Shown: positions 51,536 to 53,928 of the stretch, in pieces
Numbering within the stretch: the stretch's first letter is position 1
Layout of the letters: every line of letters begins with the position of its first letter
Source: an uncultured Collinsella sp.
GTDB lineage: Bacteria; Actinomycetota; Coriobacteriia; Coriobacteriales; Coriobacteriaceae
Assembly (NCBI GenBank): GCA_963560155.1
Contig: CAUWMY010000004.1
Location: 205 to 64,204, forward strand
Direction: 5' to 3'
Length of the DNA stretch: 64,000 bases
Translations under genes and position numbers: made by a program
Notes under the pieces: model-generated
Told to the model about the DNA's origin: nothing
The model's input: only the letters and a program-made list of their open reading frames with translations
Databases searched by the model: none

Positions 51536-51644
51536 AATGTGCAAATGGGGACGGGTGCGAATCGCACATCGGAGAGTGCGCGTCCTCGGCGTCCCGCATC
51601 GACCGCCGGGATGTGCGATTCGCACCCGTCCCCATTTGCACATC
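51536..51644. repeat. REPIN-like unit: two inverted 35-nt palindromes (copies 9 and 10) with a 39-nt spacer
   Basis: 51536-51570 and 51610-51644 are reverse complements at 34/35 positions. Confidence 0.9.
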
Positions 51645-51781
51645 CAGTCGCAAGTCCCCGCAAAACGGCTCTCAGGGGCTTGTAGAGGTATTCGGTACCT
51701 CAAACCTCACGCGTTTTACCCTTGGTCCATGCGATAAAATGTAAAGGTTAGCCATACTTCGCAATTCAAAGGGAGAACCAC

Positions 51782-53806
51782 GTGGCGAATGAGAACGAAT
51801 ACGGCGGGAGCGAGATCAAGGTTCTCGAGGGCCTTGAGGCCGTCCGCGTCCGCCCCGGCATGTATATCGGCTCCACGAGCTCGACCGGTCTGCACCACCT
51901 CGTGTGGGAGATCGTCGACAACTCCGTCGACGAGGCCATGGCCGGCTACTGCTCCCAGATCGAGGTCACGGTCCATCCCGACAACTCGATCACCGTCGTG
52001 GACAACGGCCGCGGCATCCCGGTTGACATGCACCCGGTCAAGAAGATCCCCACGCTCGAGGTCGTCATGACGATCCTCCACGCCGGCGGCAAGTTCGACA
52101 ACTCTGCCTACAAAGTCTCCGGCGGCCTGCACGGCGTGGGCGTCTCCGTCGTCAACGCGCTCTCCAAGAAGATGAATGTCCAGGTCCGTCGCGACGGCAA
52201 GGTCTACGAGATGGAGTTCTCCCGCGGCAAGACCACCCAGAAGATGGAGGAGGTCGGTTCCTCGAACACGACTGGCACCACCGTCACCTTCTGGCCGGAT
52301 GACGAGATCTTCGAGACCACGGTCTACGATTTCGACACTCTGCACGACCGCTTGCAGCAGACGGCGTTCCTCAACAAGAACCTCAAGATCATCCTGCGCG
52401 ACGAGCGTTCGGTGGAGCCCCAGGTCGAGGAGTTCTGCTACGCCGGCGGCATCATCGACTTCGTCAAGTTCCTGAACGAGGGCAAGACCGTGCCCGAGGG
52501 CCTCAAGGAGCCCATCTACATCGCCGGCGCCTCCGAGGAGGGCGAGCCGGTGGACCGGGTGGGCGAGGTCGAGGTGGCCATCCAGTGGAACACCTCGTAC
52601 TCCGAGACCGTCATGAGCTTTGCCAACGACATCCACACCATCGAGGGCGGTATGCACATGGAGGGCTTCCGCACGGCCCTCACCAGCGTGATCAACGAGT
52701 ACGCCCGCAAAAACGGCATCCTCAAGGAGAAGGAAGGCAAGCTCACGGGTGACGACATCCGCGAGGGCCTCACCGCCGTCGTGTCCGTCAAGCTGGCCGA
52801 CCCGCAGTTCGAGGGCCAGACCAAGGCCAAGCTCGGCAGCTCCTTCATGCGCACCCTCACCCGCAAGGTCGTCTCCGAGGGCCTCGCCGATTTTCTCGAG
52901 GAGCACCCCAAGCAGGCCCGCGAGATCATCAAGAAGGCCCAGCAGGCGAGCAAGGCCCGCAACGCCGCCCGCAAGGCGCGTGAGGCGACCCGCCGCAAGT
53001 CGCTGCTGGAGACCGCGAGCCTGCCCGGCAAGCTCGCCGACTGCTCCGAGCGCAACGCCGAGCTGACCGAGCTCTTCATCGTAGAGGGCGACTCGGCAGG
53101 CGGTTCGGCCAAGGACGGCCGTCGCCGAGACATCCAGGCGATCCTGCCCCTGCGCGGCAAGATCTTGAACGTCGAGCGCGTGGGCGACCACCGCGCCTTC
53201 TCCTCCGAGACCATCCAGTCGCTCATCACCGCCATCGGCTGCGGCGTGACGACCGGTAACGGCGACGGCGGCGACTTCGACATCACCAAGGCCCGCTACC
53301 ACAAGATCATCATCATGACGGACGCCGACGTCGACGGCGCGCACATCCGCATCCTGCTGCTGACCTTCTTCTACAAGTACATGCGCCCGCTCATCGACGC
53401 CGGCTACGTGTACGTGGCCTGCCCGCCGATCTTCGGCATCAAGGTTCGCAACAAGATCCACTACGTGTACCCCAACGGCCGTCAGGCCGAGGACGAGATC
53501 CTGCGCGACTCCATCGCCGCACTCGGCCTCAACCCCGACGAGCCCGAGGACGAGCAGTCCAACGGCAAGGTCACCAAGAAGCGCCGCGGCTACACCGTCC
53601 AGCGCTACAAGGGCCTGGGCGAGATGGACCCCAAACAGCTGGCCAGCACCACCATGGATCCCAAGACCCGCATCCTGCAGCGCGTGACCATCGAGGACGC
53701 CATCGTGGCCGACCGTGCCGTCCGCGAGCTCATGGGCTCCGAGGTGGGGTACCGCCGCGAGTACATCGAGAAGCACGCGCACGATGCCCGCTTCCTGGAC
53801 GCCTAG
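51782..53806 (+). CDS. gyrB: DNA gyrase subunit B
   Basis: [57 protein letters not shown]. Confidence 0.98.
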
Positions 53807-53818
53807 CCGGCGCCGGCC

Positions 53819-53928
53819 GATGTGTAATTGGGGACGGGTGCAAATTACACATCGGCGGGTTCACGCACCCCGCGGCCCGCACCGGCCGCCCGGGATGTGT
53901 AATTTGCACCCGTCCCCAATTACACATC
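53819..53928. repeat. REPIN-like unit: two inverted 35-nt palindromes (copies 11 and 12) with a 40-nt spacer
   Basis: 53819-53853 and 53894-53928 are exact reverse complements (GATGTGTAATTGGGGACGGGTGCAAATTACACATC). Confidence 0.92.

Follow-up and report, generated by a model that had tools for sequence, protein, structure and literature searches.

REPIN-type inverted doublets on both sides of gyrB in an uncultured Collinsella and the RAYT genes associated with the repeat family

Two long, nearly perfect inverted repeats enclose gyrB in an uncultured Collinsella sp. (Coriobacteriaceae), and they raise the question of whether they belong to gyrase or to a mobile element that happens to lie beside it. 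They are found in a stretch of 64,000 nt (the window; positions 205-64204 of contig C4, CAUWMY010000004.1), to which all coordinates refer unless another contig is named. The source assembly, labelled G000, comprises 1.615 Mb in 77 contigs with 63% G+C. With a probability of about 0.8, both units are REPIN-type inverted doublets, that is, paired repetitive extragenic palindromic (REP) sequences, of a family that belongs to a REP/RAYT (REP-associated tyrosine transposase) system in the Collinsella intestinalis clade. REP/REPIN-RAYT systems thereby extend to a new phylum, Actinomycetota, in which the design is distinct.

The two units and the repeat family

The upstream unit lies in the gap between a dciA-like gene and gyrB (51782..53806, plus strand). 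It consists of a left arm (51536..51570, plus strand) of REP family A in G-loop orientation, with the variant ATGTGCAAAT-GGGGACGGGTGC-GAATCGCACAT, a 39-nt spacer (51571..51609) and a right arm (51610..51644, minus strand), which is the reverse complement of the left arm with 0 mismatches over 34 nt. The downstream unit occupies the gap between gyrB and gyrA (53956..56733, plus strand; both gyrase genes, like dnaN, recF and the dciA-like gene, were identified by Pfam). Its left arm (53819..53853, plus strand) is identical to the consensus of family A, GATGTGTAATTGGGGACGGGTGCAAATTACACATC. Next come a 40-nt spacer (53854..53893) and a right arm (53894..53928, minus strand), which ends 27 nt 5' of the GTG start codon of gyrA and about 18 nt ahead of its GGAG ribosome-binding site. 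The repeat search delimited arms of 34 nt upstream (51537-51570 / 51610-51643, 100% complementary, 39 nt between) and of 38 nt downstream (53816-53853 / 53894-53931, 97% complementary, 40 nt between); at an arm length of 35 nt, complementarity is 34/35 and 35/35, respectively. An earlier note, made from the letters of this DNA, had described units of 35+39+35 and 35+40+35 nt bracketing gyrB, with which the repeat search and the gene calls agree. It had also remarked that the two units differ at several positions and that their spacers look homologous, and both remarks hold. The arms differ between the units at five positions, each of them found in both arms of its unit, and the two arms of the upstream unit share private variants absent elsewhere in G000. 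The spacers are identical at 28-30 of 40 positions, and 0 of 2000 shuffles scored as well (P < 5e-4). Since the spacers are homologous too, the two gyrB units are, as judged from their sequences, paralogous as whole doublets. The pair would have been born by copying of a whole doublet, arms and spacer together, across gyrB.

Folded as single strands, the whole units reach -53.1 kcal/mol (upstream, z = -10.5) and -57.7 kcal/mol (downstream, z = -11.8). Taken by itself, the downstream left arm folds into a hairpin of 12 bp (z = -5.4). The upstream left arm alone shows no significant fold (z = -1.0); its own hairpin is lost, but its pairing with the partner arm is perfect. Such a doublet would fold back as a long hairpin or cruciform, in which mismatches may be corrected or selected against, and the arms would stay complementary. 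Inspection of the flanking sequence revealed no direct repeats around either unit, hence no target-site duplication. A candidate at the gyrB-gyrA insert, GACGCCTA / GACCGATA, is an imperfect 6/8 repeat, and because of this imperfection and because the right flank ACCACGACCGA is common to inserts of other lineages, we do not claim a duplication. Rfam, searched in E-value mode over 50.8-54.2 kb, returned solely spurious matches to plant and animal miRNA precursors (RF00926, 40 bits against a gathering score of 90), which were rejected since any long perfect hairpin gives such matches far below gathering scores.

The arms belong to a family that is spread over the genome. The 12-nt core GGGGACGGGTGC occurs six times in the window, against 0.9 expected, and 63 times in the genome when up to one mismatch is allowed, these matches being mostly true copies; the core form TTGGGGACRGGYRC occurs 62 times, against 0 for the reversed control. 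Under a loose definition there are about 103 copies, with 51 in family A, 36 in family B and 16 others. While about 80% of the genome is coding, 88 copies were found to be fully intergenic, 16 lie across a gene edge and 3 inside genes. Many begin 0-25 nt past a stop codon, mostly in tandem or convergent gaps. The strand of the singlets relative to transcription shows no bias (15 vs 16). Short, palindromic, present in many copies and nearly confined to extragenic space, these sequences have the features of REPs. Each arm is a 35-nt hairpin with an A/T-rich variable stem and a conserved G-rich loop, GGGGAC(A/G)GG(Y)(R)C, except the arm of the upstream gyrB unit. Family A has the stem ATGTGYAATT, and family B has the same architecture on another stem (GTCTCAATT-GGGGACAGGYAC-AAATTGAGAC).

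Twenty-eight neighbouring copies lie at most 300 nt apart, and 23 of these pairs are inverted, all 23 with the same polarity, in which the G-loop arm comes first (+ then -). The inverted pairs thus have a fixed polarity and a short spacer and can form one long hairpin, as REPINs do. Arms within each doublet are homotypic (the bacterial interspersed mosaic elements, BIMEs, of E. coli are defined by alternating Y and Z types of REP with set linkers and by binding of gyrase or IHF), and they resemble each other more than shuffled partners do, in family A at 31 vs 28.8 of 35 positions (P = 5e-5) and in family B with P = 0.003. Core-to-core spacing in the 23 doublets lies between 41 and 276, the mode being 70-76 (8/23), and five doublets, across both families, have the exact 75-76 spacing of the gyrB units. 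In close relatives the spacings spread similarly broadly and the 70-76 mode recurs. The preferred spacer of about 40 nt proposed in the earlier note is recovered in part, as a mode within this broad range.

In front of about thirteen REP copies lies a partial one in tandem, consisting of the 5' stem and GG(GG), for example at C12:8304, C27:11599, C10:1121, C59:2011, C14:19707 and C34:15036. In relatives, three independent remnants (L156-L160) keep the 5' stem and GGGGACG(G), with the rest lost. Remnants and tandem partial copies together hint at a recurrent break inside the conserved loop, for which cleavage by a RAYT and processing by a hairpin nuclease are alike possible.

RAYT transposase genes and their cognate REPs

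A search of G000 with the Pfam model Y1_Tnp (PF01797) found two genes. The first, RAYT-A (C2:59062-59817, minus strand), is intact, encodes 252 aa and matches PF01797 at 2.7e-10. Its best NCBIfam match is REP_Tyr_transpos (NF047646) with 68.7 bits, while the IS200 model gives 15 bits. The second, RAYT-B (C10:258-1003), is frameshifted in the assembly and is followed by a REP-B copy; as the contig ends within the 5' flank, bracketing is visible on the 3' side only. The frameshift reflects either a pseudogene or an assembly error, and the end of C22 looks like the missing upstream flank of this gene. Contigs that end in or near REP copies (C10:1, C22:105, C21:30) indicate that REPs seem to break this assembly.

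In an alignment of 22 homologues the motifs YHV, NHxH (the HUH motif; NHVH in RAYT-A), the catalytic Y119-x-H-x-NP and WSS are all invariant. Residues of about 185-247 form a conserved C-terminal helical segment, L-R-x-A-G-L...Q-I-E-R-x-T-G-I-G-R, which is present throughout the homologues from Coriobacteriia. This segment has no Pfam match, and it looks like a helix-turn-helix (HTH) added to the Y1 core. Searching the PDB with the single RAYT sequence (phmmer) gave nothing relevant, and the profile of 22 sequences gave 4ER8, the E. coli TnpAREP, as best match (E = 1.2e-3). Foldseek with an AlphaFold model of RAYT-A (pLDDT 88) likewise placed 4ER8 on top (E = 1e-6, TM 0.73), with TnpA of ISDra2 and IS608 at about 1e-4. 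According to the model, RAYT-A has the predicted Y1/HUH fold and is nearer to TnpAREP than to the TnpA of IS200/IS605.

RAYT-A is bracketed by REPs. In the orientation of the gene, a REP(+) at 60002-60038 is followed by the RAYT (59817-59062) and by a doublet (+,-) at 59038-58933 on C2, and the same order was found in a 99%-identical strain and in an 85% sister (L173 and L174). Synteny is likewise kept in both relatives (obg-nadD-yqeK-rsfS, RAYT, GT8-dinB-rpsP). Each genome carries one RAYT copy per type, at a fixed site and in a vertically inherited context. The polarity of a RAYT with its flanking REPs is that of a doublet. Other types of RAYT are also accompanied by their own repeats. A RAYT in the relative G045 (65% identical) is bracketed by A-like REPs with the loop GGGGTCGGGTGC, the B-type RAYTs of G046 and G043 have B REPs on both sides, a third type in G043 is bracketed by ACCTCAAATT-AGGGACAGGCAC hairpins, and the RAYT of G014 by the REP of that genome. 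Cognate REPs thus adjoin RAYT genes in G000 and in relatives, which bears out the suggestion in the earlier note that the doublets are of a RAYT-associated family.

We propose that the RAYT would recognise the hairpin and the GGGGAC loop motif on single-stranded DNA, and would cleave and join there. Its action would spread and maintain the REPs, a role like that suggested for TnpAREP and in REPIN systems.

The gyrB sites in relatives and the competing explanations

A 16-mer scan over one genome per species located the informative close relatives. Many copies of the 16-mer occur within Collinsella, in C. intestinalis DSM 13280, C. intestinalis MGYG-HGUT-00247, UMGS1432, ERR4316498_bin.15 and MGYG-HGUT-01575, and the GyrB proteins of the 16-mer-rich Collinsella genomes are 95-97% identical to that of the window. 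Outside Collinsella, one metagenome-assembled genome (MAG) of Phycisphaerales has many copies, and the other matches are single chance ones. This REP sequence is absent from 40 GTDB relatives, of which 24 are congeners and 16 represent other genera within the order. Almost every one of these 24 Collinsella species encodes 2-4 RAYT homologues, which are 37-47% identical. Many Collinsella without REP expansion (G001-G024) have exactly one TTGGGGACAGGCAC site, which is not beside RAYT genes and may be a conserved orthologous single copy. The Phycisphaerales MAG, SS_bin_71, contains at least 8 copies of a repeat with GGTAATTGGGGACGGGTGCGATTTTGTCC (L066, L068, L095, L101, L106, L108). This repeat has about 20 nt in common with the REP-A variant AATTGGGGACGGGTGCGTTTT, but GGGGAC/GTCCCC forms the stem there, and the likeness may be due to chance or to a common RAYT recognition motif.

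The two gyrB sites were compared in seven genomes (G000 and G041-G046, with G041 being C. intestinalis DSM 13280). In the gyrB-gyrA gap an intact doublet is present in G000, G043, G046 and G045, whereas G041 and G042 have a 20-nt piece of the right arm, CCCGTCCCCAATTACACATC, right after the gyrB stop codon, and the gap of G044 measures 9 nt. Among 24 contigs from gut metagenomes, 21 have the remnant in this gap, 2 an intact doublet and 1, from a capuchin, a different tandem hairpin. At the upstream site the doublet is present together with the adjoining 64-nt palindrome PAL2 in G000, G043 and G042. G046 and G041 have a similar remnant, PAL2 being gone with the doublet, and both doublet and PAL2 are absent in G045 and G044. 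Presence or absence among strains, which the earlier note had named as a check, thus takes the form of intact, remnant and absent states in both relatives and metagenomes. The remnants suggest that the direction of change at the gyrB sites was loss. The attempt to polarise the history of the upstream site on the tree failed, as G042 has the doublet and both its nearest relative G041 and the outgroup G046 have the remnant; recombination or repeated loss is therefore implied. In G045 (L158), gyrB is like that of C. intestinalis (96% at the amino acid level) and the gyrB-gyrA doublet is identical, yet dciA is outgroup-like (44% of third positions differ), which suggests a recombination boundary between dciA and gyrB.

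Other sequences were also observed in the gyrB-gyrA gap of relatives. G014 carries its own REP doublet there (L016:1360-1500), G009 (L017:3520-3690), and also G011 and G012, an inverted repeat of 140 nt that belongs to a low-copy family, and the Cebus gut contig L201 three tandem GTGGACA...TGTCCAC hairpins. A similar right flank (ACCACG..GAAC) is common to the inserts of G000, G014 and G009. The gap is only 9-11 nt long in G001, G004, G010 and G044.

The intact copies allow the arms to be compared at orthologous positions. In the downstream unit of G000, G043 and G046, 0 of 70 arm sites are variable, against 5 of 40 in the spacer and 25 of 111 third codon positions in the adjacent dciA. The upstream unit differs between G000 and G043 at 2 arm positions, both mirrored in the partner arm, and at 8 of 40 spacer positions. 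Owing to the mirrored substitutions, perfect complementarity is kept in each genome and the arms evolve in concert, and we take this comparison of orthologous sequences as direct evidence of concerted arm evolution in the upstream unit. The homogenisation of arms predicted in the earlier note is thus seen twice, here and in the likeness of arms within doublets.

About 50 REP motifs occur in G041 and about as many in G042, and no Y1_Tnp gene was found in either of them even at E <= 1, although absence in MAGs is to be read with care. In G041 both gyrB sites are remnants.

Several observations weigh against a REPIN-RAYT origin of the gyrB units. G043 keeps both doublets intact although no A-type RAYT was found in its MAG, possibly because of a gap in the assembly. 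In G000, a frameshift interrupts the second RAYT. RAYT-A scores under the REP_Tyr_transpos cut-off (68.7 < 80), so that it is not a member of the curated equivalog, and it carries an extra C-terminal domain. The link between RAYT and REP consists of adjacency and co-variation. The gene calls behind the intergenic counts are home-made. Finally, of 210 pairs of spacers, which are 5-240 nt long, 207 are unrelated, and the gyrB pair is among the 3 that are significantly alike. Unrelated spacers of variable length argue against the doublet plus spacer as the usual replicating unit. Whole-doublet copying, as read from the spacers of the gyrB pair, cannot be generalised to the family, and the earlier proposal of a mobile doublet of about 110 bp accordingly fits this pair but may not hold for the family in general.

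The same spacers leave room for a less probable reading, in which the single REP is the mobile or primary unit and doublets form locally. The second arm would be templated by fold-back or template switching in replication, or a REP would insert beside a REP, and hairpin-directed correction would keep the arms complementary. The spacer homology at gyrB would then be an exception, such as a segmental duplication around the gene. Beyond the unrelated spacers, this is favoured by the observation that about half of all REP copies are singlets, by arms with private variants such as those of the upstream gyrB unit, by the roughly 13 tandem partial duplications ('5' stem + GGGG') and by the REP at the 3' end of recF, which is flipped in place between genomes. 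However, the gyrB units agree in their arms, in a homologous spacer and in the 39/40-nt geometry, and the 70-76 spacing mode is met again in both families as well as in relatives. The common polarity of doublets and of RAYTs with their flanking REPs is also what is expected if doublets descend from a two-ended element.

A second alternative regards the hairpins as functional elements of the host, such as stabilisers or terminators at 3' ends, RNase III sites or sites for gyrase or nucleoid proteins, with the adjacency to transposase genes being secondary; the gyrB-gyrA unit would then tune gyrB:gyrA expression or sense supercoiling. REP/BIME elements of E. coli have roles such as stabilisation of transcript 3' ends, processing, and binding of gyrase and nucleoid proteins. 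The many copies just past stop codons are consistent with such a function, and so are the gyrB-gyrA arms, invariant in three lineages against 22% variation at neighbouring silent sites, and the unrelated palindromic inserts in the same gap of other Collinsella. Nevertheless, this alternative is unlikely. Invariant, consensus-like arms are also predicted by selection at the level of the element, and the singlets lack strand bias. In most gut contigs of C. intestinalis the gyrB-gyrA unit is a 20-nt remnant, and it is absent from many congeners, which have a gap of 9-11 nt, so the unit is dispensable. The upstream unit sits 5' of a conserved gyrB promoter/leader block. A consensus scan for promoters and terminators at both units found none, and the missing T/U run after either unit and the A/T-rich stems of the REPs speak against an intrinsic terminator.

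A narrower form combines a takeover of the gyrB-gyrA doublet by the host, as a control of GyrB:GyrA or of supercoiling, with RAYT+HTH enzymes of Coriobacteriia that would make up a loop-reading REP system (GGGGAC in the loop, not a 5' tag); we regard this combination as improbable. The perfect 35-bp intercistronic hairpin or cruciform ahead of the gyrA ribosome-binding site would set the GyrB:GyrA ratio by RNase III-type processing or translational uncoupling, or would alternatively act as a supercoiling-sensitive or gyrase-binding site. Such a takeover would explain the downstream arms that are invariant in three lineages (with silent sites differing by about 22%), the exclusively paired substitutions in the arms of the sister unit and the unrelated palindromes in the same gap of other Collinsella.

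Miniature inverted-repeat transposable elements, as deletion derivatives of a cut-and-paste DDE insertion sequence with the 35-nt arms as ends, would account for the layout of the units, in which terminal inverted repeats of about 35 nt enclose a short non-coding middle, but are very improbable given that neither unit has target-site duplications, each arm is itself a hairpin that also occurs singly about 50 times, and arms of this kind were seen at the ends of no genes other than those for Y1/HUH transposases.

Local repeats, known systems and implications

REPs are present in four consecutive gaps from dnaN (48676-49779) through gyrA, and the position at gyrB therefore looks like part of a local cluster. 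The REPIN-type units at gyrB are best read as members of this cluster (dnaN-recF-dciA-gyrB-gyrA), not as a demonstrated gyrase regulator. In the dnaN-recF gap lies a doublet of the family B type (49796..49895; loop GGGGACAGGCAC), the right arm of which has a partial duplication. The 3' end of recF (49943..51091, plus strand) runs through a single REP-A copy (51016..51053, minus strand) within the last codons of the gene, so that the RecF protein has a REP-encoded tail. This copy is also present in relatives and has the opposite orientation in C. intestinalis G041 and in G046. In G041 it occupies the same site with the loop inverted between unchanged flanks, and in G046 it is likewise flipped but breaks off after GGGGACG. 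The dciA-like gene (PF05258; 51124..51459, plus strand) precedes PAL2 (51465..51528; GCGCGTGYRATGTCGAAAAT...ATTTTCGACAT..., fold z = -6.3), which lies directly 5' of the upstream unit. For strain comparison, records with exactly the sequence of the DciA-like protein were looked up, and there were none. Elsewhere in the window there are a single REP-A copy (4523..4559, minus strand) and two single REP-B copies (692..726, plus strand; 59882..59917, minus strand, loop GGGGTCAGGTAC).

PAL2 represents a third palindromic family of about 65 nt, GCGCGTGYAATGTCGAAAAT-N19-21-ATTTTCGACATTRCACGCGC, with 10 copies in G000. Those besides the copy in the window are located at C4:11160, C5:29163, C12:8432, C12:39258, C14:30504, C21:12755, C23:11294, C32:5569 and C52:6121. 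Three of the ten adjoin or sit inside REP doublets, and two REP-PAL2-REP composites on C12 (200-240 nt) are copies of each other.

The closest described parallels are the REPIN-RAYT systems of Pseudomonas fluorescens SBW25 and relatives (Bertels & Rainey 2011, PMC3116915; Bertels et al. 2017, PMC5581495). Similar to the Collinsella repeats, two inverted REPs and the short spacer between them fold there into a long hairpin, in tens to hundreds of extragenic copies, and several REP families each have a cognate RAYT that lies between its own REPs at a fixed site. These systems, too, are inherited vertically, their singlets resemble decayed units, and conservation is higher in the arms than in the spacers. 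The Collinsella system differs in its actinobacterial host (Coriobacteriia), in a motif that is a 12-13-nt G-rich loop on A/T-rich stems and not a 5' GTAG tag, in a RAYT of about 250 aa with the extra C-terminal helical, HTH-like domain, and in spacers that are mostly unrelated and of variable length. An association with REPINs has been stated for RAYTs of Groups 2 and 3 only, all of which are proteobacterial (PMC5581495; bioRxiv 10.1101/2021.07.10.451892).

TnpAREP of E. coli (PDB 4ER8), the best structural and profile match, shares the HUH and catalytic Tyr motifs and was crystallised on a REP hairpin. Identity is 18%, however, the Collinsella REPs lack the GTAG tag, and TnpAREP (165 aa) has no C-terminal domain. 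The REPs tagged with GTAG/CGTC (Di Nocera et al. 2013, PMC3733652) are likewise short stem-loops, mostly head-to-head dimers, lineage-specific and in several families per genome. GTAG is absent from the Collinsella repeats, and although family B often starts with (C)GTCTC, this is a paired stem; the loops have 12-13 nt, compared to 4-5 nt. The survey covers eight phyla and does not name Actinobacteria (PMC3733652), and our literature search found no paper tying Collinsella to REPs.

Elements of IS200/IS605 (TnpA of IS608 and ISDra2) have the Y1 HUH fold, sub-terminal hairpins, a presumed single-strand chemistry and no target duplications in common with the Collinsella system. In contrast to them, the Collinsella RAYT gene is present once, at a fixed syntenic site, and not in multiple copies. 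Hairpins are far more numerous than the gene, and the IS200 model of NCBIfam scores at only 15 bits. In Neisseria gonorrhoeae REPINs decay after loss of the RAYT (bioRxiv 10.1101/2021.07.10.451892), and RAYT-less lineages keep decaying REPs, a situation comparable to G041. The comparison in Collinsella covers two loci, and absences in MAGs may stem from the assembly.

In the literature, REPIN-RAYT systems are discussed as replicators that persist for long within bacterial genomes and pass on vertically, and a system in a Gram-positive gut actinobacterium widens their taxonomic and mechanistic scope. It comprises three cognate REP/RAYT pairs and another design of putative recognition, with a conserved loop, a variable stem and a RAYT with an HTH-like domain, in which the loop would be the part that is recognised. 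The paired arm substitutions at an orthologous locus show directly how a single element evolves in concert. In practical terms, the repeats seem to break MAG assemblies and make strain markers in a common genus of the human gut. Sister lineages that are naturally RAYT-positive and RAYT-negative, including the type strain C. intestinalis DSM 13280, make the birth, homogenisation and decay of REPINs tractable in Collinsella.

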